DNA from: Eledone cirrhosa
Lineage: Eukaryota
Length of the DNA: 64,000 nucleotides
Direction of reading: 5' to 3'
Assembly (NCBI GenBank): GCA_964016885.1
Contig: OZ024751.1
Coordinates: 18,352,001 to 18,416,000, forward strand
The number at the start of each line of letters is the position of its first letter. Position 1 is the first letter of the stretch. This document shows positions 3,620-62,960 of this stretch, in pieces. The notes under the pieces are model-generated. The model was not told the origin of the DNA and did not search any database. It worked only from the letters and a program-made list of their open reading frames with translations. A program made the position numbers and the translations under genes.

Positions 3620-3840
3620 TATGTACTCAATAACAGGAGTGCTCTCTATGTTTATCCTAGGGCAGACACGTCTGTGGGTGGTTTACTGTGTTATTTTAGC
3701 TGCATCTTTGTACCGGAAACTAGTACTACCTTGATTTCGGAGCAGCTGTTGATCCCGTGTGCACTATTTTGCAGTGAATTGTGACATAATCGACATTTTC
3801 ATTTACATAATCGACATTTTCTATATTAAATATGAATATT

Positions 3841-3961
3841 TAATATAGAAAAGGCTTCTACAGGACTAGAACTGTTTCATTCGGGAGAAACCATCTGGGG
3901 CTTCCTGATGATTTCTCCCGAATGAAACAGTACTAGTCCTGTAGAAGCCATTTCTATATTA
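3841..3961. mobile_element. Family A palindromic HHR element (PLE pLTR-like)
   Basis: ~55 bp inverted arms around a short loop, right end runs into (TA)n. Confidence 0.8.
3899..3949 (+). ncRNA. Type I hammerhead ribozyme motif (family A)
   Basis: GGCTTC-CTGATGA-T.TTC(TCCC)GAA.T-GAA-ACAG(TACTAGTC)CTGT-A^GAAGCC: stems I, II and III all pair, GUA cleavage triplet. Confidence 0.8.
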
Positions 3962-5079: not shown

Positions 5080-5511
5080 CTTCCCACCCACCAAACGAAA
5101 ATTGTTTATCAGTGCGTACAATAAGGAACATGTATGTTTGTGTAAGGATTATGGAACATTGAAGATATAAAACAAGGGTGGCTGAGTATATTGTTGTGAA
5201 GATGGCGGGTGGGAGTGGTGACGATGGGGTGGTGGGAAGAGTGGGAGTTGGGACGAAGGGGTGGTTGGATGGGTGGGAGTTGGAACGATGGGGTTGTTTG
5301 GATGGGTGGGAGTTGGGACGAGGGGGTGGTTTGACGGATGGCTGTGATTTGAGTATGACAAAAATGATGTGGGAACAGTAAGAGTAGCTGTAAGAGGATG
5401 TGTTATTGGTGAAATATGAAGAGGCAGCGATGGGTAGTAGGTAAGGGTGTCTAGTTGTGGCCTGAGGTCTGTGATAACATAGGTATCTATATGTGAGTGA
5501 GTTTGTGGGCG

Positions 5512-7841
5512 GGTAGGTGTGTAGATGTGTCTAGGAGTGTAGATGTGTGTAGGTGTGTAGATGTGTGTAGGTGTGTAGATGTGTCTAGGAGTGTAGATGT
5601 GTGTAGGTGTGTAGATGTGTCTAGGAGTGTAGATGTGTGTAGGTGTGTAGATGTGTCTAGGAGTGTAGATGTGTCTAGGAGTGTAGATGTGTGTAGGTGT
5701 GTAGATGTGTGTAGGTGTGTAGATGTGTCTAGGAGTGTAGATGTGTGTAGGTGTGTAGATGTGTCTAGGAGTGTAGATGTGTGTAGGTGTGTAGATGTGT
5801 GTAGGTATGTAGATGTGTGTAGGTGTGTAGATGTGTGTAGGTGTGTAGATGTGTGTAGGTCTGTAGATGTGTGTAGGTGTGTAGATGTGTGTAGGTGTGT
5901 AGATGTGTCTAGGAGTGTAGATGTGTGTAGGTGTGTAGATGTGTGTAGGTGTGTAGATGTGTCTAGGAGTGTAGATGTGTGTAGGTGTGTAGATGTGTCT
6001 AGGAGTGTAGATGTGTGTAGGTGTGTAGATGTGTCTAGGAGTGTAGATGTGTGTAGGTGTGTAGATGTGTCTAGGAGTGTAGATGTGTCTAGGAGTGTAG
6101 ATGTGTGTAGGTGTGTAGATGTGTGTAGGTGTGTAGATGTGTGTAGGTGTGTAGATGTGTGTAGGTGTGTAGATGTGTCTAGGAGTGTAGATGTGTGTAG
6201 GTGTGTAGATGTGTGTAGGTCTGTAGATGTGTGTAGGTGTGTAGATGTGTGTAGGTGCGTAGATGTGTCTAGGAGTGTAGATGTGTGTAGGTGTGTAGAT
6301 GTGTGTAGGTGTGTAGATGTGTGTAGGTGTGTAGATGTGTGTAGGTGTGTAGATGTGTCTAGGAGTGTAGATGTGTGTAGGTGTGTAGATGTGTGTAGGT
6401 GTGTAGATGTGTCTAGGAGTGTAGATGTGTGTAGGTGCGTAGATGTGTCTAGGAGTGTAGATGTGTGTAGGTGTGTAGGTGTGTGTAGGTGCGTAGATGT
6501 GTGTAGGTGTGTGTAGGTGCGTAGATGTGTGTAGGTGTGTAGATGTGTGTAGGTGCGTAGATGTGTGTAGGTCTGTAGATGTGTGTAGGTCTGTAGATGT
6601 GTGTAGGTGTGTAGATGTGTCTAGGAGTGTAGATGTGTGTAGGTGTGTAGATGTGTGTAGGTGTGTAGGTGTGTAGATGTGTGTAGGTGTGTAGATGTGT
6701 GTAGGTGTGTAGATGTGTGTAGGTCTGTAGATGTGTGTAGGTCTGTAGATGTGTGTAGGTGTGTAGATGTGTGTAGGTGTGTAGATGTGTGTAGGTGTGT
6801 AGATGTGTGTAGGTGTGTAGATGTGTGTAGGTGCGTAGATGTGTGTAGGTCTGTAGATGTGTGTAGGTCTGTAGATGTGTGTAGGTGTGTAGATGTGTCT
6901 AGGAGTGTAGGTGTGTAGATGTGTGTAGGTGTGTAGATGTGTGTAGGTGTGTAGATGTGTGTAGGTGTGTAGATGTGTGTAGGTGTGTAGATGTGTGTAG
7001 GTGTGTAGATGTGTGTAGGTGCGTAGATGTGTGTAGGTGTGTAGATGTGTGTAGGTGCGTAGATGTGTGTAGGTGTGTAGATGTGTGTAGGTGCGTAGAT
7101 GTGTGTAGGTGCGTAGATGTGTGTAGATGTGTGTAGGTGTGTAGATGTGTGTAGGTGTGTAGATGTGTGTAGGTGTGTCGATGTGTGTAGGTGTGTAGGT
7201 GTGTAGATGTGTGTAGATGTGTCTAGGAGTGTAGATGTGTGTAGGTGTGTAGATGTGTGTAGGTGTTTAGATGTGTGTAGGTGTGTAGATGTGTGTAGGT
7301 GTGTAGATGTGTGTAGGTGTGTAGATGTGTGTAGGTGCGTAGATGTGTGTAGGTGTGTAGATGTGTGTAGGTGTGTAGATGTGTGTAGGTGTGTAGATGT
7401 GTGTAGGTGCGTAGATGTGTGTAGGTGTGTAGATGTGTGTAGGTGCTTAGATGTGTGTAGGTGTGTAGATATGTGTAGGTGCGTAGATGTGTGTAGGTGT
7501 GTAGATGTGTGTAGGTGTGTAGATGTGTGTAGGTGTGTAGATGTGTGTAGGTGTGTAGGTGTGTAGATGTGTGTAGATGTGTGTAGATGTGTGTAGGTGT
7601 GTAGATGTGTGTAGGTGTGTAGATGTGTCTAGGAGTATAGATGTGTGTCGGTGTGTAGATGTGTAGATGTGTGTAGGTGCTTAGATGTGTGTAGGTGTGT
7701 AGATATGTGTAGGTGTGTAGATGTGTGTAGGTGTGTAGATGTGTCTAGGAGTGTAGATGTGTGTAGGTGGGTAGATGTGTCTAGGTGTGTAGATGTGTGT
7801 AGGTGTGTAGATGTGTGTAGGTGTGTAGATGTGTGTAGGTG
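5512..7841. repeat. 18-bp minisatellite array, ~2.3 kb
   Basis: Unit GTAGATGTGTGTAGGTGT with variant GTAGATGTGTCTAGGAGT. Explains the VDVCRC ORFs. Confidence 0.95.
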
Positions 7842-8691: not shown

Positions 8692-9018
8692 ATATAAGAT
8701 CAAAAGATGGTTAAAAGAGCTCCAAGTATTTTATTATGCGCATTTCAAAAACAAATATCATCATGAGATGATACCTGCGTTTTCATCAAATAAAATAGGG
8801 ATACATGATATGAAGGTTAAAAAACACTTGCGAACAGTGAAGTTTTAAATCAACATATCATGATGATATTTGTTTTTGAGATGCGCATAAGAAAATACTT
8901 GGATCTCTTTTAACCATATTTTGATAATATATTATTTATACCCCAGTCCTACAAACTGTAGAGTGCTACTTATCCGATATTTGCATTGCTTTATTTTGCT
9001 ACAATAAAACTCACCTCC

Positions 9019-9021
<3 letters not shown>
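8691..9021. mobile_element. Family D inverted pair (degenerate HHR)
   Basis: Left arm minus, right arm plus. Homologous to 59708-59923 and 60906-61136. Core here reads TTGATGA. Confidence 0.75.
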
Positions 9022-11929: not shown

Positions 11930-12500
11930 ATAAAATATTAAACAAATAATGAACAAACAATTCCTTATATTAAACAAAAAAAGTTCACTATTTAACGATC
12001 GTTTCTAGGGTATATATGTGTTATAATTGGTATGCATATTCAACAGATCTATGTACAAAATTATACAAAATTATACAAATTATCAAGATTAAATATACAT
12101 ACCTAACACATATATACGCCGTCTTCAGAAATAACGAAGTATATAAGAGATATATACTTCGTTATTTCTGAAGACGGCGTATATATGTGTTAGGTATGTA
12201 TATTTAATCTTGATAATTTGTATAATTTTGTATAATTTTGTACATAGATCTGTTGAATATGCATACCAATTATAACACATATATACCCTAGAAACGATCG
12301 TTAAATAGTGAACTTTTTTTGTTTAATATAAGGAATTGTTTGTTCATTATTTGTTTAATATTTTATCTTGACTCTGTATACCGTTTATCTTTCACCGAAA
12401 GTGGATTTTCATTACATCTCTTCTTTCCATGATATCCGGAATACATTGAGTTCTTCATACGGATTGGACACTACCGTAAACTCTTGGTAGATTTATCTAC
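11930..12500. mobile_element. Family F palindromic HHR element
   Basis: ~216 bp apparently identical inverted arms (11930-12366) around the 5-nt loop AGAGA. Right arm continues to 12500 and then (TA)n. Second copy at 61352-61697. Confidence 0.85.
12163..12307 (+). ncRNA. Type I hammerhead with very long stem II (family F)
   Basis: TATTT-CTGAAGA-[~116 nt; GTATATATGTGTTA/TAACACATATATAC and GGTATGTATATTTAA/TTGAATATGCATACC pair]-GAA-AC(GATC)GT-T^AAATA. Mirror copy at 11989-12133 minus. Confidence 0.75.
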
Positions 12501-13579: not shown

Positions 13580-13733
13580 AAGTATGACCCCGACGGCAGA
13601 GCTCAAGCCGTTTCGACGAAACGGCTTCAGCTCTGCCGTCGGGGTCATACTTTTCCTATTTCCCACTCTACTACCCTAAGTATTGAGGACTCTGGTGCGT
13701 TATGGTCCACCTGATCCCTTACCATAATTCCTT

Positions 13734-13738
<5 letters not shown>
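13576..13738. mobile_element. Family J palindromic element
   Basis: GACCCCGACGGCAGAGCTCAAGCCGTTTCG-A-CGAAACGGCTTCAGCTCTGCCGTCGGGGTC plus family tail. Confidence 0.8.
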
Positions 13739-23432: not shown

Positions 23433-23593
23433 TAACAAAGAGGGTGTGGTAAGATACCAGGTAGACCATAACGCACCAGAGTACTCAATACTTAGGGTAG
23501 TAGAGTGGGTGATAGCTGGCTTAGTTCGGTTAGTTGGGATCTAGCTGTCGAAACGGCCGGAGCCCAGCCGTCGGGGTCCTGACTCTTTTCCTG
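23433..23593. mobile_element. Family J inverted element
   Basis: Tail in minus orientation, then GTCGAAACGGCCGGAGCCCAGCCGTCGGGGTC in plus. Confidence 0.75.
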
Positions 23594-23599
23594 TATTTG

Positions 23600-23911
<312 letters not shown>

Positions 23912-23950: not shown

Positions 23951-24310
23951 CAATATATTAATAAATGGAAACTATATTTATAAAACCATAATTATTTTAT
24001 TATATATATTTCAAGGGCAACCAAGGCAAATTTTGGTGCGCTTTCATCAGATAAAATACAAATTTGTTTTATAAATAAATATTGACATACCCGCATAAAG
24101 ACAACATTAACAAATTTGTATTTTATCTGATGAAAGCGCACCAAAATTGGTTGCCCTTGAAATATATATAATAAAATAATTATGGTTTTATAAATATAGT
24201 TTCCATTTATTAATATATTGAATATTTACTCCACTAGCTGTTGAATGCTTTATATCAGTTATAAAAATGTTAAGCTTTTTGAATCCCAACAAATTAAATA
24301 CAGCCTCTGC

Positions 24311-24361: not shown

Positions 24362-24667
24362 AGGGGAGAAGAATACTGCATGGTTGCACATGGATTACCT
24401 ATTATAAAATTAGTCCCTCATCAGTGATTTACCAACCATCATTGGTATTTCATCGCATTAAAAATCAGATACCTCAGGTTGGTATGAGCCATAACTAAAA
24501 TAAGCTATTGGGACAAGTATATATATATATATATATATATACATCTGTAGGCGGTGATCACCGAACACGAAAACTACCCGGTCACACACCCGAATCTCGC
24601 TTAACTATCCTTCCAAGGTCACATTGAGTTCTATCAACCGTATCAGCCACACCACAACCACATATAT

Positions 24668-24968
24668 TATTATCCTTTGGGGATGTCATACTGCCAATAA
24701 AAACACATGGTTTTCCCTTCAATTTACTATAAATTTCCGGTTGGTTGGTTGGTTCGATAACCGGATGGTTGTTTATATATTGTCAAAGTCCTTTCGTCAC
24801 ATATTCTATGACCTCTTCAGTAACTGGCTTTTTATTTTGTGTCTATCCTTAAAACCCACAGGGGCGTGTGTTTTTATTGGCAGCATGGCCCTCCCAAAGT
24901 ATAACAATATCTGTTTCAACACACGTTTTCAGATGAAAAATCTTGCAAAAGTAATTAAAAAACGAAAT
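24668..24968. mobile_element. Family L inverted pLTR pair
   Basis: Minus arm with HHR at 24782-24824. Plus arm 24866-24968 gives the 3' tail. Confidence 0.7.
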
Positions 24969-25153
24969 ATATATATCTGATTGTTTTGCTTTCCAACCTA
25001 CCTATCTACAATTTCTCATAACTTTAGACTTTCCTGATGCAGGTTCAATGTCTGATATGTCGAGACATTATTTTCCCATTTCCCTCAAACCTGAAACTAA
25101 AAGAACTTTGTTTCATTGTATCTCCATGTTCGTCATTTTTAACCGTAAACTAA

Positions 25154-25732: not shown

Positions 25733-25925
25733 CAAAGAAAGTGTGGTAAGGAACCAGGTGGACCATAACGCACCAGAGTACTCTTTACTTGGGGTAGTAG
25801 AGTGGGTAATACGGAAAGAGCCAGGAACCCGACGGCTGAGCTCCGGCCATTTCGACAGCCAGATCCGATCGGACCTGGTTGTCGAAACGGCCGGAGCTCA
25901 GCCGTCGGGGTTCTGACTCTTTTCC

Positions 25926-25998: not shown

Positions 25999-26168
25999 GC
26001 GTGTGTGTGTGTGTGTTGTTATGCTTTGGGAGGGTCATGTTGCCAATAAGAAACACACGCACCACTAACTTTCACTCCAATTTATTATGAATTAAATTTA
26101 TAAATTTAAGAATTTATAAGTTTCCGGTTGGCTGGTTGGTTCCAGAACCGGACGGTGGTTCATATATT

Positions 26169-26211
26169 GTCAAAGTTCTTTCGTCACATATTCTGTGATC
26201 TCTTCAGTGAC
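26169..26211 (-). ncRNA. Minimal type I hammerhead (family L)
   Basis: GTCA-CTGAAGA-G-ATCACA(GAATA)TGTGAC-GAA-AG(AA)CT-T^TGAC. The copy at 32655-32697 has a perfect GTCACA/TGTGAC stem II. Confidence 0.75.
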
Positions 26212-26408
26212 TGGGGATTCTTTTCTTTGTTTTGTGTCTCTCCTTTGTTCTACCTACGCCATCTTGTTTTTGTGTGTGTTGTGTGCTTAGTTTGCGCATG
26301 TGTTACATCCGGGTGTCTGTGTGTGTTTTTATTTGTTTATTTATCTGTTTATCTACATGTTACTGGTTGGTTGTTTGTTCTATGTGTGTGTGTGTTTTCA
26401 TTTTGTCC

Positions 26409-26820
26409 TTAATTGTAAGTTGTGATATTGCTATTCCATTCATGCTGTGGTTGGAGTTCATTTATGTTTATTGCCTTTGTGATTTGTCTAAACGTTGCGT
26501 CTTTTCTGTTTGTAGATTCTATTTTTATTTCTATGTTCTCTAATTTGCCCTTATGTTCTATTTTAGCATGTTGGTGGAGTATTGATGATTCTTTTTATCT
26601 TGAAGTTCTCGCCAGTGTTCATTTAACCGTTCTCCTATACTACGAGCTGTCTCACCTATGTACACTTTATTCTTATCGTTACATTGTCCTTCAGTACATC
26701 TTATGCTTTATACTACATTTCTAGTTTTACAGTTAATATGGGGGCTTAGTTTACAGATTATGCATTTCTTATCTACATAAGGAGGTCTTTGAAAAGGGTA
26801 TGTATTTCTAATAAGTGGTA
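26409..26820 (-). pseudogene. GIY-YIG endonuclease domain of a Penelope-like element
   Basis: Manual translation: CIICKLSPHINCKTRNVV*SIRCTEGQCNDKNKVYIGETARSIGERLNEHWRELQDK / ESSILHQHAKIEHKGKLENIEIKIESTNRKDATFRQITKAININELQPQHEW. One stop (26708-26710) and one frameshift. Confidence 0.88.
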
Positions 26821-26856
26821 TATATATATACACATATACATATATATACATATATG

Positions 26857-27045
26857 TTTATCCCGGGTTCAATCGGGGGAAACCACAATAAGTACGGTAC
26901 TCAATACATAGCAGAGTATAAATATTTAATATAGAAATGGCTTCTATAGGACTAGAACTGTTTCATTCGGGAGAAATCATCAGGAAGCCACTGATGATAT
27001 CTCCCGAATGAAACTGTCCTAGTCCTGTAGAAGCCATTTCTATAT

Positions 27046-27052
<7 letters not shown>
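26857..27052. mobile_element. Family A palindromic HHR element
   Basis: Minus-strand HHR at 26938-26990 with 7-bp stem I TGGCTTC/GAAGCCA. Second core on plus at 26991. Confidence 0.85.
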
Positions 27053-27333
<281 letters not shown>

Positions 27334-32565: not shown

Positions 32566-32770
32566 TTTTAATATAGATGAGATTCTACAGGACTAGAACT
32601 GTTTCATTATTTAGAAATCATCAGATTCCACAACCGGACGTTTGTTCATATATTATCAAAGTTCTTTCGTCACACATTCTGTGACCTCTTCAGTGACTGG
32701 GGATTATTTTCTTTGTTGTTGTGCCTCTCTTTTGTGCCTCTCCTTTGTTCTGTCCTACGCCATCTTGTTT
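32565..32770 (-). mobile_element. Fused family A and family L pLTR fragments, two tandem HHR cores
   Basis: A arm 32565-32624 directly abuts L arm 32626-32770 (HHR 32655-32697). Confidence 0.7.
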
Positions 32771-32999
32771 TATATATATATTTTGTAGGTCACGTTTGAG
32801 GTTGCTCGGTCATTGTAAAGTTTCAGCGTACTCTAGGTGGCAATATAGACAATGGTTGTTCCAAGTCCCTTATGTCAATGATAATACCCATGCCACTACC
32901 TTACTCCTATATGGTGGTCACAATGTTGTACCGTCACAGCTGTGACATGCATACATACTTGCTCCTATTATATAAACACAGGAGACATACACACGGTAG

Positions 33000-33435: not shown

Positions 33436-33438
<3 letters not shown>

Positions 33439-33591
33439 CTTCTGCAGGACTAGAACTGTTTCATTCTTGAGAAATCATCAGGAATGAAACAGTTCTAGTC
33501 CTGTAGAAGCTCTTATATATTAAACATGTATACTCTGCTTTGTATTGAGTACCTTACTTACTGTGGTTACCTCCGATTCAATCCGGAATAA

Positions 33592-33628: not shown

Positions 33629-33815
33629 CGAAGGAAATGTGGTAAGGAACCAGATGGACCATAACGCACCAAAGTACTCAATGCTTAGGGTAGTAGAGTG
33701 GGTAATAGGAACAAGTAAGACCCCGACGGCTGAGCTCAAGCCGTTTCGACGGCTAATTCTGTACTGAATTAGCCGTCGAAACGGCTTGAGCTCAGCCGTC
33801 GGGGTCTTACTTGTT

Positions 33816-34193: not shown

Positions 34194-34380
34194 AAGGAAA
34201 TGTGGTAAGGAACCAGGTGGACCATAACTTAGTGTAGTAGAGTGGGTAATAGGAAAGAATAGGACCCCGACGGCTGAGCTCAAGCCGTTTCTACGGCTAA
34301 TTCTGGACTCAATAAGTTTTAGTCCAGAATTAGCCGTCGAAACGGCTTGAGCTCAGCCGTCGGGGTCCTACTCGTTCCTA
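34190..34380. mobile_element. Family J palindromic element
   Basis: Inverted arms, (TA)n flanks. Confidence 0.8.
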
Positions 34381-35960: not shown

Positions 35961-36088
35961 AGAAAGGAAGTGTGGTAAAATACCAGGTGGACCATAACGC
36001 ACTGAGTACTCGATACTTAGGGTAAGCTGGCTTAGTTCGGATCTAGCTGTCGAAACGGCCGGAGCTCTGCCGTCGGGGTCCTGACTCT

Positions 36089-36092
<4 letters not shown>
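35961..36092. mobile_element. Family J inverted element
   Basis: Same layout as 23433-23593. Confidence 0.75.
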
Positions 36093-36437: not shown

Positions 36438-36620
36438 GTTATTACGGGTTGAATCGAAGGTAACCACAGTAAGTAAGGTACTCAATACATAGCAGAGTAT
36501 AAATGTTTTAATATAGAAGAGCTTCTACAGGATTGTTTCATTCGTGAGAAATCATCAGAAAGCTTCCTGATGATTTCTCACGAATGAAACAGTTCTAGTC
36601 CTGTAGAAGCTCTTCTATAT
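36438..36620. mobile_element. Family A palindromic HHR element
   Basis: Long minus arm plus short plus arm, (TA)n flanks. Confidence 0.85.
36561..36611 (+). ncRNA. Type I hammerhead (family A), intact
   Basis: AGCTTC-CTGATGA-T.TTC(TCAC)GAA.T-GAA-ACAG(TTCTAGTC)CTGT-A^GAAGCT. Confidence 0.8.
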
Positions 36621-37979: not shown

Positions 37980-38478
37980 AACCAAAGATTAATATGGTTC
38001 GTTGATTACGCAATGAATACAATTTTACAATAGATTAAAAGCACTCAACAGTAGAAAAGGTTTTCCTGGATTTTTTTATATTATTCAAAATATTAACAAA
38101 TGAAAGATATTCACATAATCAAAATATATGCTTTATTATATATATTTCAAAGATACTGTGTTGTTTTTTTTCAGTACGTCTTCATCAGATAAAATATATA
38201 TGATATATGACATACCGCTACGGTCTTGATTATACAATTCCAGTATTGGTAGTACTGCCAATACTGGAATTGTATACTCAAGACGTACTGAAAAAACAAC
38301 AACACAGTACCTTTGAAATATATATAATAAAGCATATATTTTTATAATGTGAATATCTTTCATTTGTTAATATTTTGAATTATATTAAAAATTCCAGGAA
38401 AACTTTTTTGTTGAGTGCTTTTAATCTATTGTAAAATTGTATTCATTGAGTAGTCAACGAACCATATTAATCTTTGGT

Positions 38479-39464: not shown

Positions 39465-39860
39465 AGTTCTATTTAAATTGTTGGGATACAACAAGCAAAT
39501 ATTTGTATAACTGATATAAAGCACTCAACAGTTATTTGGAGTAAAAATACGATATTAACAAATGGAAACTATATTTATAAAACCATATTTATTTTATTAT
39601 ACATATTTCAAGGACACCAAGTTAAATTATGGTGTGCTTCTCATCAGATAAAATATAATATAGATCAGTTTTATAAATAAATATTGACATACCCTTAAAG
39701 AATGCAACCATTACTGTTGGAAGCTCCCTGGAGCTTCCAACAGAATCGCATTCTTTAAGGGTATGTCAATATTTATTTATAAAACTGATCTATATTATAT
39801 TTTATCTGATGAAAGCACACCATAATTTAACTTGGTGTCCTTGAAATATGTATAATAAAT
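39465..39860. mobile_element. Family C palindromic HHR element
   Basis: Arms meet at GGAAGCTCC-CT-GGAGCTTCC (~39728). One HHR core on each strand. Confidence 0.85.
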
Positions 39861-39872
39861 ATAATAATATAT

Positions 39873-41786: not shown

Positions 41787-41787
<1 letters not shown>

Positions 41788-41910
41788 GGATTCAATTGGA
41801 GGTAACCACAGCAAATAAGGTACTCAATACAAACCAGAATATAAATATTTAATGTAGAAATGGCTTCTTCGAATGAAACAGCTCTAGTCCTGTAGAAGCC
41901 ATTTCTATAT

Positions 41911-41911
<1 letters not shown>
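41787..41911. mobile_element. Family A element, centre deleted
   Basis: AGAAATGGCTTCT...AGAAGCCATTTCT arms. CTGATGA core lost. Confidence 0.75.
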
Positions 41912-41959
<48 letters not shown>

Positions 41960-42257: not shown

Positions 42258-42583
42258 ATGTTATCTTTCTAATTAAATAGCTTTGTTTTAGAGCACTCTT
42301 TTTTCCTTTGCTTTTTCTTCGGAAATACTTAACATATATATATAATGAGGGAGAGAAAGAGAGAGGGGAGAAGAGTGTGTCTACTACGGTGCAGGGAATA
42401 CACTAATCATGGGAGTACTCAGTGCATGGGGAGATGCAGAATGGGTATAGAGATAGGAAAAACCCTGACCGTGGTGCTAGGTGGTCGGGATTTTACTCCT
42501 CTCTCTCTCATTCACTCACTCTCTCTTTTTCTCTCTCTCTCTCTCTCCCTCTCTTTCTCTCTCTCTCTATATATATATATATT

Positions 42584-42770
42584 ATTACGCGTTGACCATC
42601 CTTGGTAAAGTTGGAGCACATTGGAAAAAACATCATTATAATCGGTAGAGAAATGTGGAAATGCATAAAAATCATACACACACAGAGACAGACATCTTCC
42701 ATTTTATATATATATATATATAAAACAGAAGATGTTTGTCTCTGTGTGTGTATGATTTTTATGCATCTTC

Positions 42771-42810
<40 letters not shown>

Positions 42811-42997
42811 GAAGATGTCTGTCTCTGTGTGTGTATGATTTTTATGCATTTCCACATTTCTCTACCGATTATGATGATGTTTTTTCCAATGTGCTCCAAC
42901 TTTACCAAGGATGGTCAACGCGTAATAAAGTTTGCCAAATATTTCCTGATTCTATGAAAAAAGATCGATAAAACTAAATACATGTTGCAACTCTCTC
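42584..42997. mobile_element. Head-to-head Helitron 5' ends around (TA)n
   Basis: Arms match 2690-2880 of the Helitron. Confidence 0.75.
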
Positions 42998-45986: not shown

Positions 45987-46075
45987 CATACATGCATACA
46001 TTCTTACATAAATACATACACATACATAAATAGACACGTACATACATACATACATACATACATCCATACATACAT

Positions 46076-46527
46076 ACAAACAAGACCGAGAAGTGACATA
46101 CACGTCAAAACATATATAATATGATGCAGTGAAAGCTAGTGAGAACGTTCAATGGAGAGAAAACAGAAGTAGGGAATGTGAAGTGTAAAAGCCGTGTGTG
46201 TGTGTGTGTGTGTCAACAGGCAGGTAACAGTTGTGAATATTTGTGTGTCCAGTAACTATTGTCGTATTAAGCAGCTGTTTATTACCAGTGTCCACTGTTA
46301 TATTAACCCCCCTCCTACCACACCGACCTGTCTACCTTTATACTACCTCCACCTCACACCCCCAACATCTCCTTCTTGTTCATCGCCCTCCTCATAAAAT
46401 TATATTGTTTACTTAATAACACCACATTCCCTACTTCTGTTTTCTCTCCATTGAACGTTCTCACTAGCTTTCACTGCATCATATTATATATGTTTTGACG
46501 TGTATGCCACTTCTCGGTCTTGTTTGT
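46076..46527. repeat. Element with ~105 bp terminal inverted repeats in (TACA)n/(TGTA)n
   Basis: 46076-46180 is the near-perfect reverse complement of 46422-46527. Confidence 0.85.
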
Positions 46528-48644: not shown

Positions 48645-48974
48645 GCAGATGTTATATTTAATTTCTTGGGATTCAACAAGCTTAAAAATGTTTATAGCTG
48701 ATATAAAGCACTCAACAGTTAAGTGGAGTAAATACACAATATATTAATAAATGGAAACTATATTTATAAAACCAGATTTATTTTATTATATATATTTCAT
48801 GGGCAACCGACCGTTAAGGTTGTCTTTTTTCTGGGTATGTCAATATTTATTTATAAAACAAATCTCTAATTTATCTGATGAAAGCGCACCATAATTTTCC
48901 TCGGTTGCCCTTGAAATATATATAATAAAATAAATATGGTTTTATAAATATAGTTTCCATTTATTAATATATTG
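48645..48974. mobile_element. Family C inverted pair
   Basis: Minus arm truncated in stem II, plus arm with full core (~48875). Confidence 0.8.
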
Positions 48975-53807: not shown

Positions 53808-54196
53808 ACATGACCATCTTCCCGTCCCACGGTGGCAAACCCCTCATCTGGGATGCCACTTGCACCGACACTTTCTGCAGCCGCAACCTGGTGCAGTCTG
53901 CGACTGACCAAGGTTCTGCTGCACGTTGGGCTGAGGGGGCCAAACTCATCAAATACCGGTCGCTCTCCGACAGGTTTGCGGTCTTTCCCCTGGCAGTGGA
54001 GACTTCTGGTGTCCTCAGCCCCAGGGCTACCTCCTTACTCACCACCATAGCCGCTGAGCTGACCAGCCGCAGGTGTGAGCCCCGCGAGTTGGAGTGGCTT
54101 TTCCAGCGCGTCTCCCTTGCCGTCCCCCGGGGAAACGCCTTCTCTGTTCTGTCCGCAAGGGCTGTGGGTGGACCCCATCGCGTACCAATACATTAG
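53808..54196 (+). pseudogene. 3' fragment of a CRE-like non-LTR retrotransposon (restriction-like endonuclease)
   Basis: GKPLIWDATCTDT...AE..K..KY...FPLAVETSG...LFQRVSLAVPRGNA matches the CRE-clade RLE C-terminus. Confidence 0.8.
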
Positions 54197-56885: not shown

Positions 56886-57759
56886 CAAGGTGTGTCAGAA
56901 AAGTTCCAGGACTGATGTCACAAAAGATTTATTTCAAACCCAAACTTCACACTAAGAGTTTTCTCCTTCAAAGTAATCCCCCTGGAGTCTATTGCACTTT
57001 TCCATCCTTTTCTGCCACGCTTGGAAGGATTCTTCCGGGATCCTCCGCAGTTCCGTCGTTACGGCCTTTTTGATGTCGTCTACGTCTTCAAAACGGGTCC
57101 CCTCCGGGTCGTACTCGAAGATCCATGACTCATCACTGGTGATGACTGTCCCTAGCAAGTCTGGTTCAGTTTCAAGACGATCCAGAATGTCCTGGCACAC
57201 TTGCATGCGTCGACCCTTCTGGTCATCGTTCAGCAGTTTTGGCACCATCTTCGCGCAGACTTTTCGCATGTCCAAATCTTCAGTGAGAATCTTCCAGACG
57301 CTGTCCCGATTCATGCCCAGCTCATTTGCCATCAGTCGAACAGTCAGCCGACGATCGCTACGCACCATCTGCCTGACGCGCTCAACGTTGACCACAGTCC
57401 TGGTTTTTGAGGGCCTTCCGCTCCTAGGGTCATCTTGCACCACTCAAAAACACGTGAGCGTGACATCGTCTCATCTCCATACACTTGCTGCAGCAATCCC
57501 AGTGCTTCTGGCGGAGTTTTCCCCAACCGTACCAGAAACTTCAAGTTTGTTCGTTGCTCTGTGCTCATTGCTTGACGACCTGAAACAGAGGACATATATA
57601 TAAAATTATGAAGAAAAAAGTTTGATCGCTGCAGAGAGCTAAGATTACAGTTACATACTCCAGGGGGATTACTTTGAAGGAGAAAACTTTTAGTGTGAAG
57701 TTTGGGTTTGAAATAAATCTTTTGTGACATCAGTCCTTGAACTTTTCTGACACACCTCT
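56886..57759 (-). mobile_element. Internally deleted mariner transposon
   Basis: ~103 bp TIRs (56886-56988 / 57657-57759), TA at the right end. Confidence 0.92.
56952..57568 (-). pseudogene. Mariner transposase, frameshifted and missing most of the catalytic domain
   Basis: MSTEQRTNLKFLVRLGK...SRSRVFEW / DDPRSGRP...KVCAKMVPKLL...ITSDESWIFEYDPE joined directly to GTRFEDVDDIK...GDYFEG. Confidence 0.92.
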
Positions 57760-58719
57760 TATATACATATATACATATCTGTGTGACTATATTTCTGTTT
57801 GTATTAGTATGTATATCTGTGTGTCTGCGTGTGTGTGTGTATGTGTGTGTGTTTTCATCTGTATGCATGTGCATGCGGGTTTGCTTGTGTCTGTATGTAC
57901 ATGTCTCCGTCTGTATGTATTTGCAGACTTGTTTGTCAGTGTGTTTAAGTACATTTTTATGTGTGTGTGTGTATAAATATGTGTATGTGTATGCGTTTAT
58001 GTGCGTGCATGTTTTCGTGTGTGTATATTTGCATGCTTGTTTGTCTGTGTCTAAGTACATTTGAGTGTATATATAAATATGTGTATGTGTTTGTGTGCAT
58101 GTTTCCGTGTATGTTTGTGCATGCTTGTGTGTCTGTGTGTTTAAGTATATTTGTGTATCTGTGTAAATGTGTTTATTTGTGTGTATATATGTGTTTGTTT
58201 GAATGTTTCCGTGTGTGTGTTGTGCATGTTTGTTTGTCTGTGTGTTTAAGTATATTTGTGTATGCGTGTAAATGTTTGTGTGTGTGTGTGTGTGTTTGTG
58301 TGCATGTTTCCGTGTGTATGTTTGCGCATGCTTGTTTGTCTGTATGTTTAAGTACATTGTGTATATTTATACATGTCTATGTGGAACAGAAATATCTAAG
58401 TGGATACCTATAATCCAGAATGGATGTAGATGTTAAGTAATGAATGGGAGAATGAAAGAATAACGGGATGAGAGAATACACTGTAAAAATAAAGAATATA
58501 AGACTAATAGTGTAATAAATGACGTCACACAGATATGGCGTCTTTCCTGTATTTCAGCTGACAAATGTTCGTCTTCAGTTAAATTTTCTATATATAGAGG
58601 ATACGTTTGGAAATAACGATATCTCGCAGGCACCTCTGTGCAATTTTTCTGTCTCTAGGAGTACTCCACCTGAAATTATCATGTATTATACATAGTGATC
58701 GACTAACATTTTGGTTCTT

Positions 58720-59479: not shown

Positions 59480-59659
59480 GAAAAGATTCAGGACCCGAAG
59501 GCTGGGCTCCGGCCGTTTCGGATCTAGCTTTCGAAACGACCGGAGCTCAGCCGTAGTAGTATTTGTCCTGAATCTTTTCATACTACCCACTCTACCTCTC
59601 TAAGTATCGAGTACTCTGGTGCGTTATGGTCCACCTGGTATCTTACCACACCTTCTTTG

Positions 59660-62507: not shown

Positions 62508-62540
62508 AGATAATGATAATAATAATAACAACAATAATAA

Positions 62541-62960
62541 GACGGACAAGAAACTGGAACACAATAGACCTGACCTGGTGGTTTTGGACAAGGAAAAAAG
62601 ATCGTGCCTGATTGTGGATGTAGCCTGCCCATTCGACACGAGAGTGCAAGAGAAGGAGAGGGAGAAAATTAACCGATACCAGGACTTAAAGTGGGATGTA
62701 AAAAAGGATTTGGAACTGCCATGAAGTCAAAGTGGTCCCGATTGTCATGGGTGCACTAGGGACTATCTCAAAAAGTTTCCAGGGATGGTTAAAGAAAATT
62801 GGCCCCGCCAAGCTTTTTGGAACGCTTCAAAAGGCATGCTTGCTGGGAACAGCAAGAACCCTCCGATACGTCCTGAATATCTGAGGCTGCAGGTAGTGGC
62901 TTGATATTCATTTCAACAAACTTTCCAGTTAACTAACATCAATGACTGAGAGTCAAAGAA
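62541..62960 (+). pseudogene. 3' fragment of an R4/Dong-like non-LTR retrotransposon
   Basis: TDKKLEHNRPDLVVLDK...IVDVACPFD...EKEREKINRYQDL / IWNCHEVKVVPIVMGALG...LQKACLLGTARTLR, stop at 62882-62884. Preceded by (TAA)n. Confidence 0.85.

Follow-up and report, generated by a model that had tools for sequence, protein, structure and literature searches.

The L-family copy at 26016-26818 is, with a probability of about 0.88, a dead-on-arrival, 5'-truncated insertion of an autonomous, single-ORF Penelope-like element (PLE), made by two-site priming in (TA)n. It lies in the 64-kb window, by which we mean the whole stretch of DNA analysed, and it ties a short hammerhead repeat family to a coding parent. 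The layout with a GIY-YIG endonuclease at the C-terminus followed by a hammerhead-bearing pLTR, together with the mechanism, is known biology and the locus itself is ordinary PLE debris. According to PMC13282606, PLEs are plentiful in the Octopus vulgaris genome and have been active there recently. New here are a pLTR end that appears to hold the start of the ORF, and head-to-head insertions in which a single arm has a tail, a pattern already published for PLEs. Unexpected is the parent lineage, in which a Nematis-like endonuclease linker is combined with an RT carrying a conserved ~70-aa insertion; this may be an undescribed PLE clade, a suggestion we rate a little below an even chance.

Coding remnant, hammerhead and probable ORF start

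Six-frame translation of the minus strand gives the peptide in two frames, 26818-26561 with one TAA and then 26594-26412 (Table 1). With this window peptide phmmer retrieved 117 proteins at E<=0.001 from 1.84 billion representatives (best 1.1e-19, 57% identity), and 116 of them match the family profile. Pfam GIY-YIG (PF01541) is matched at E=2e-4 with 22.0 bits, 0.6 bit short of the 22.6 cut-off, and the second endonuclease piece (26594-26412) has no Pfam family match. A word-index protein search with an 86-aa piece against longer proteins returned eight candidates, none significant. The decayed minus-strand GIY-YIG peptide of the preliminary description is real on the Pfam and phmmer evidence, the extent of the element being corrected to 26818-26016. 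It is missing from the ORF track, as had been remarked, with no ATG-started ORF covering the domain: the longest in its frame has 47 aa and stops at the internal TAA.

Table 1. Features of the L-family insertions in the window
Feature	Position	Strand	Description
Whole L-family copy	26016..26818	-	5'-truncated PLE, 803 nt, ends at tail-less 3' end
End of RT-endonuclease connector and Cys linker	26711..26818	-	[C]-X4-C-X2-C-X7-C; Tyr at first Cys position
In-frame TAA	26708..26710	-	at Tyr position of GIY motif
GIY-YIG core	26592..26707	-	two Cys, YIGET, conserved Arg and His; frameshift in A-run 26596-26592
Endonuclease C-terminal half, second frame	26409..26594	-	two His kept; stop codon 26411-26409
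3' UTR, AC-rich	26212..26408	-	final 60 nt common to 32.7 kb copy
Minimal type I hammerhead	26169..26211	-	core 26207; predicted cut between 26173 and 26172
Probable start of the element's own ORF in pLTR end	26016..26038	-	ATG at 26038
Short L arm with hammerhead (core 24820)	24667..24850	-	tail-less 3' end
Inverted L arm	24861..24970	+	head-to-head with 24667-24850, bears 3' tail
L mini-insertion	27103..27222	-	120 nt; no hammerhead
L copy with hammerhead (core 32693)	32626..32771	-	84% over 146 columns; 3' end missing

The copy is heavily damaged. Conservation was scored on 63 relatives with a complete endonuclease, chosen for the insertion, the linker and at least 110 residues after the linker, so that the linker Cys and Tyr columns are invariant in them by selection rule. 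Of the 26 conserved columns, 20 are identical in the window copy, one lies outside the piece, one carries Ile for Leu and four are lesions. These affect the first linker Cys, the GIY Tyr (a stop), a Glu that is invariant in 63/63 relatives and is Lys here (26477-26475), and a conserved Asn region that is shortened, the last two in the C-terminal half of the endonuclease. Judged from its sequence, this copy cannot yield an active nuclease. Neither tblastn nor profile searches placed a telomerase-like RT in the copy itself. It is flanked by (TA)n on its 5' side and (CA)n/(TA)n on its 3' side; as (TA)n lies directly upstream of 26818, the truncation falls within the connector, ahead of the linker. 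It is a dead sibling of the short L copies and not their parent.

The hammerhead core begins 202 nt past the ORF stop codon, in keeping with the ~200 nt first reported. It has a stem I of 4 bp, one extra base after A9 and a stem III of 2 bp; stem II has 6 bp in the sister copies and a mismatched first pair in the 26 kb copy. A strict descriptor found 11 cores in the window and none from family L, because it disallows an extra base after A9. A relaxed type I descriptor, tuned after the stricter one had missed all three L motifs, found 14 motifs in the window including 26207, 24820 and 32693 (100 shuffles: mean 0.04, max 1). Rfam gave no match in the window at gathering score, and the folding energies of the L monomers are unremarkable (z -0.34, -1.52 and -0.67). 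The L motif, for which cleavage is predicted, shares traits reported for metazoan PLE hammerheads in PMC4209133, which gives an extra base after A9, a long stem II and a short stem I, together with weak cleavage, and cleavage as dimers.

The pLTR end of family L likely holds the start codon of the element's ORF. An ATG lies ~22 nt before the near L end in three arms (26038, 24689 and 24885), and that at 24885, continued into the tail, opens a 29-codon frame resembling the N-termini of full-length relatives. Compared with the first 40 aa of 22 long relatives, its peptide ranks first of 1559 ATG-started window peptides, scoring 495 against a mean of 304 (sd 42); with the ATG requirement dropped, the tailed stub ranks 5/2355. 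The best single comparison stands at 2 of 1000 shuffles, uncorrected and for one of 22 relatives. The first two proteins compared with the L start were not significant (169 and 240 of 1000 shuffles), and the L ends are not among the top matches to a profile of 19 N-termini. The two tailed L arms differ at five positions, four of them third codon positions (P=0.045, small numbers). A comparable arrangement is given in PMC3846280 for a rotifer (Adineta) Penelope pLTR, which holds the first 12 aa of the ORF, or 22 with the tail. The likeness of the pLTR end to these N-termini likely ties the L ends to the protein lineage by a route separate from the endonuclease.

Short copies and two-armed insertions

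Only four L insertions are present in the 64-kb window (26016-26818, 24667-24970, 32626-32771 and 27103-27222). The copies without the ORF that had been placed at 24668 and 32626 are real, at 24667-24850 and 32626-32771 with 81-84% identity. Their details needed amendment, as the former has an inverted partner at 24861-24970 and the latter is without its 3' end. Within the first, 24850-24728 matches L at 84% over 131 columns and 24707-24667 at 81% over 42. The mini-insertion consists of an inverted arm of 21 nt without a tail (27202-27222), a partial repeat, also of 21 nt, and an arm with a tail (27180-27103). It was considered as a 5' pLTR of the 26 kb copy and rejected as a separate, two-armed insertion without a hammerhead. 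A matching 5' pLTR, envisaged in the preliminary description, was not found in tandem upstream of 26818. Since the copy is truncated inside the ORF, its absence is expected and has no bearing on the parent.

The L 3' ends recur at two points, one near (26016, 24667 and 27222) and one far, ~40-60 nt on (24970 and 27103). Both two-armed insertions have a tail on one arm and none on the other, and the 26 kb copy is without an inverted partner arm. The 5' starts of the arms fall at five different positions of the 803-nt copy (1, 549, 574, 756 and ~784). Because the 5' ends differ, we take the short copies most likely to be truncated insertions, in preference to a pLTR-only family. The earlier proposal that they are pLTR-only products of the parent holds in that they come from the same element, and is too narrow in view of the five starts. 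Inverted 45-48-nt repeats around the 24.7 kb copy were also considered as the terminal repeats of a MITE; this was rejected because they are the L 3' end, one of them continuing into the tail.

At 32567-32771 the L copy is joined, without a spacer and on the same strand, to an arm of a second family, K, which starts at its hammerhead core. This junction, at 32626/32624, is a possible template switch between the two families.

By analogy with other PLEs, the element protein would nick (TA)n DNA and use the nick to prime reverse transcription, starting at either of two sites just inside the ORF start in the downstream pLTR. Priming at the inner site would give the tail-less end (26016 and 24667), and at the outer site the tailed end (24970 and 27103). 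The cDNA would then run back through the hammerhead and 3' UTR and stop early, after ~20 to 255 nt in most L arms and after 803 nt, as far as the endonuclease linker, in the 26 kb copy. Where both strands are primed, two truncated cDNAs would be linked head-to-head, leaving a single arm with a tail. The hammerhead would be a passenger in monomeric copies, its 2-bp stem III needing a dimer or the element protein, again as in other PLEs. Inverted 5'-truncated copies and one-ended tails are published for PLEs (PMC8557442), and PMC11167929 describes how PAc cuts and extends both strands, the tail lying between two RT start sites. Nicking and extension of both strands from two such sites would explain the tail on one arm in L. 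The window thus displays in genomic DNA a pattern of two-start-site, two-strand priming so far seen in vitro for one Poseidon element. Its head-to-head products resemble MITEs or hairpin RNAs and could be misannotated.

Four further families, labelled K, J, M and N in this analysis, contain head-to-head pairs with a tail on one arm only (K 5/6, J 7/7, M 3/4 and N 1/1), nearly all in (TA)n. The pairs lie at 23728-23908, 26856-27048, 33438-33591, 36439-36610, 41787-41912 and 3831-3959 for K; at 13586-13735, 23436-23588, 25733-25922, 33631-33806, 34194-34378, 35963-36090 and 59482-59659 for J; at 23951-24300, 39465-39866, 48651-48974 and 38090-38436 for M; and at 8692-9021 for N. Type I hammerhead cores are present in K, M and N. 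The J copies have no CUGANGA core in either hammerhead scan, a possible 3' half being seen by eye only. This shared two-armed, one-tailed architecture in (TA)n indicates that the four families were probably made by the same mechanism as L. The earlier notion that each has a parent of its own agrees with the shared architecture and finds no coding support in the window, where tblastn of 235 proteins and two family profiles run on 2355 stop-free segments gave no other PLE coding remnant.

The 5' starts of the M arms spread over ~125 nt, and those of 10/13 K arms fall <=15 nt from the hammerhead core, a count made with a query that itself starts near the core and would cut off longer K arms. The K clustering could be explained if the RT stalls at the ribozyme, or if the template is short and defined. 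At 15 sites in the window (for example 4255, 23488, 23774, 26904, 30221 and 48715) the word TTGAGT(A/G)C is found, and 14 of these are in K, J and M tails by their flanks. These families are otherwise unlike one another, and the L tail is without the word. It may be a shared protein-binding or priming signal.

Other features of the window were seen in passing. Longer perfect or near-perfect fold-backs, found by eye at 11932-12365, 38090-38436, 42582-42925 and 46063-46525, may in some cases be further two-armed insertions or assembly artefacts. A decayed mariner-like transposon at 56900-57760, also recognised by eye, has inverted ends and transposase-like frames on the minus strand; its only Pfam match is HTH_32 at E=2.4e-4, below cut-off. 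Frames at 53810-54196 and 62540-62900 have no Pfam match and look like the endonuclease region at the C-terminus of non-LTR retrotransposons. At 5490-7840 lies a minisatellite of 2.3 kb, rich in G/T and strongly skewed in GC.

Parent lineage and its RT insertion

No full-length L copy or RT was seen, and the RT of family L is therefore inferred via relatives. Going by these, the parent would be an autonomous PLE with one ORF, encoding a telomerase-like RT, a Cys linker and a GIY-YIG at the C-terminus. The relatives have a single ORF with the RT first and the endonuclease last, and in the 63 chosen relatives the linker lies 124-254 aa from the C-terminus. Of the 117 phmmer proteins, 24 extend upstream into the thumb or RT, and an RT after an endonuclease occurs only in P0060 and P0102, both of which also end in an endonuclease. 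The PLE layout asserted in the preliminary description, a C-terminal GIY-YIG and then a hammerhead-bearing pLTR, is borne out by the endonuclease homology, the architecture of the relatives and the hammerhead motif.

The longest near match, P0069, gave 198 proteins in a search of its own. Among the matches listed (best 120 of 198) are names of Octopus vulgaris (P0161) and Holothuria leucospilota, and one with a bacterial MAG label that is taken for a mislabelled contig. Over 60 aa, P0161 and the window piece share 45% identity, and judging from P0161 the host of the window is probably a cephalopod. In an endonuclease tree of 78 columns and 212 rows, the window piece falls with P0161, P0003 and P0005 in an 11-row group with an SH-aLRT of 88, which is not strong. 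The endonuclease matches also include a more distant PLE group, P0080 and P0117, whose motif B is related and whose endonuclease is followed by long C-terminal extensions.

In the relatives the RT is telomerase-like in its predicted fold. An AlphaFold2 model of the relative P0120 (pLDDT 92.2) has telomerase as its top four rows in both Foldseek and VIA-align, in the latter with Z 12.4 and rmsd 4.1 over 408 aligned. A PDB sequence search returned only two bacterial defence RTs, weakly, and no TERT. Three of the seven relatives tested match Pfam RVT_1, all below cut-off. The nearest ESM Atlas clusters to P0120 are unnamed and are followed by PLE-like Pfam sets, which serves as a lead only.

What sets the lineage apart is the distance separating RT motif A from motif B. 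Counted from the Asp of motif A up to the initial Gly of motif B, it is 129-138 residues in 93/93 rows, these being the rows with both anchors among 123 aligned relatives. A pattern count in 89 relatives gave the same spacing with three exceptions: P0102, which is Poseidon-like (59), P0233 (91) and a relative lacking motif B. In Fig. S1 of PMC8557442, counting by hand gave spacings of 61 (Penelope), 63 (Nematis), 60 (a Neptune) and 87 (a Naiad); human TERT has ~118, its Asp position being assumed as in the other rows. Published clades with a C-terminal endonuclease have a spacing of about 60, and the insertion is ~70 aa. It contains conserved Glu (93 of 93 rows), Pro (92), Arg (92 and 90), Gly (90), Trp (89) and Cys (80), and is modelled at pLDDT 89-98 in P0120, where it lies at about residues 330-440. 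Searched alone in the ESM Atlas, it found unnamed clusters at 0.88-0.91 and no family, again a lead only. The relatives were gathered with an insertion-bearing query, and an insertion in every relative of the window piece is not implied.

The insertion sits at the position of the telomerase IFD, and position alone does not prove IFD homology; the structure searches report ranges rather than residue pairs and do not thereby show an IFD-like fold. Were the insertion homologous to the IFD, C-terminal-endonuclease PLEs would not all have lost it, and in its architecture the lineage may be one of the PLEs that stand nearest to the PLE-telomerase ancestor. A large RT family barely recognised by Pfam stands against the rule, as stated, by which an IFD is confined to PLEs with an N-terminal endonuclease. 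It bears on the relationship between telomerase and PLE RTs, and intact ORFs exist.

The parent could belong to a ninth, unnamed PLE clade that is widespread in invertebrate data and present in Octopus, with a Nematis-like GIY-YIG, a canonical hammerhead and a telomerase-sized, conserved and folded insertion in the RT fingers, an assignment made tentatively and at somewhat under one chance in two. It may equally be an ordinary member of Nematis or of Neptune, a paraphyletic group according to PMC8557442, with the RT insertion a subclade trait already in curated libraries; this is a serious prospect, if short of an even bet. The resemblances to Nematis in linker spacing, CCHH and RT1-RT2 loop favour such a placement, as do the short Cys-rich inserts described at the same RT position in two rotifer families (PMC3846280). 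It fits poorly with the A-B spacing, 129-138 in the relatives vs about 60 in the hand-counted Nematis, Neptune and Penelope rows, and with the statement in PMC8557442 that canonical PLEs are without an IFD, with sporadic Coprina exceptions only. Two motifs typical of the lineage also occur 0 times in the supplement of that paper, which gives full sequences only for Naiad, Chlamys and Hydra. Searches of open-licence PMC and bioRxiv papers listed no description of such a clade, which may already be represented in Repbase, Dfam or the subscription literature.

The origin of the copies themselves could also be read differently. Short L elements might be a self-standing non-autonomous family of the non-LTR retrozyme type, made as short hammerhead RNAs that are cut and circularised and that a PLE copies in trans; the 26 kb copy would then show only where they came from. 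Retrozymes do derive from PLE pLTRs (bioRxiv 10.64898/2026.07.22.740005), coding remnants are far fewer in the window than short hammerhead elements, and the K starts cluster near the core. This account is nevertheless unlikely. Active retrozymes are defined in that preprint as tandem units and the 64-kb window holds no head-to-tail L arrays; the five 5' ends of the L arms also speak against it, and the third-position bias in the ORF start suggests coding masters, in small numbers. Far less probable still is that the endonuclease fragment and the hammerhead-bearing pLTR have nothing to do with each other and came together by chance or by template switching, in an insertion hotspot rich in microsatellites. 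Insertions in (TA)n are nested in the region, which has one chimeric L/K junction, and the endonuclease-pLTR link is seen once. However, the stretch from the stop codon to the hammerhead contains no (TA)n tract or inverted junction, and the pLTR end independently resembles N-terminal sequences from the lineage to which the endonuclease belongs, the best being that of P0192, an insertion-bearing protein. The truncated insertion of a single-ORF PLE remains the preferred reading.

Comparison with known PLE clades and retrozymes

Nematis is close in its endonuclease, sharing the C-terminal GIY-YIG, the CCHH and the pLTR hammerhead (PMC8557442). The Nematis_C4 linker of Fig. S2 in that paper has the spacing C-X4-C-X2-C-X7-C with a Tyr seven residues on, the first Cys being Tyr in the window copy, and the lengthened RT1-RT2 loop of its Fig. 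S7 is also found in the relatives. In contrast, the relatives have ~70 extra residues between RT motifs A and B, and their RT1 and motif B consensus is unlike the printed nematode rows. Neptune similarly has a Cys linker ahead of a C-terminal GIY-YIG and targets (TA)n. However, its linkers printed in PMC8557442 have ~20-30 residues from CxxC to the next Cys where the window copy has 7, and its printed rows are without the RT insertion.

Penelope/Poseidon, represented by PAc of Anolis (PMC11167929) and Adineta (PMC3846280), resembles L in the pLTR over the ORF start, the one-ended tail, the inverted truncated arms and the minimal hammerhead. This clade is without the Cys linker that is present here, and the Poseidon-like P0102 has an A-B spacing of 59. 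Naiad and Chlamys share an RT insertion at the IFD position, a preference for (TA)n and presence in Octopus (PMC8557442), but have an N-terminal endonuclease, whereas here it ends the ORF. Naiad further has no canonical hammerhead, whereas one follows the ORF here, and its insertion is ~20 aa.

Hydra, including Hydra-1_Obim, has a C-terminal endonuclease, a (TA)n target and a hammerhead, with KDHK in RT1 of the relatives as a further likeness. It differs in having CxCX5C and no CCHH; the window copy departs from it in both, keeping two Cys and the His residues. The Hydra-1_oBim hammerhead printed in PMC8557442 is by eye unlike the L motif. Non-LTR retrozymes are likewise short and non-coding, being units with a type I hammerhead and a relationship to PLE pLTRs, but they form head-to-tail tandems, whereas L consists of dispersed single or head-to-head arms with variable 5' ends. 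Among the PLE clades, the Nematis-type linker spacing together with CCHH therefore excludes Poseidon, Neptune, Hydra, Naiad and Chlamys on the features stated.
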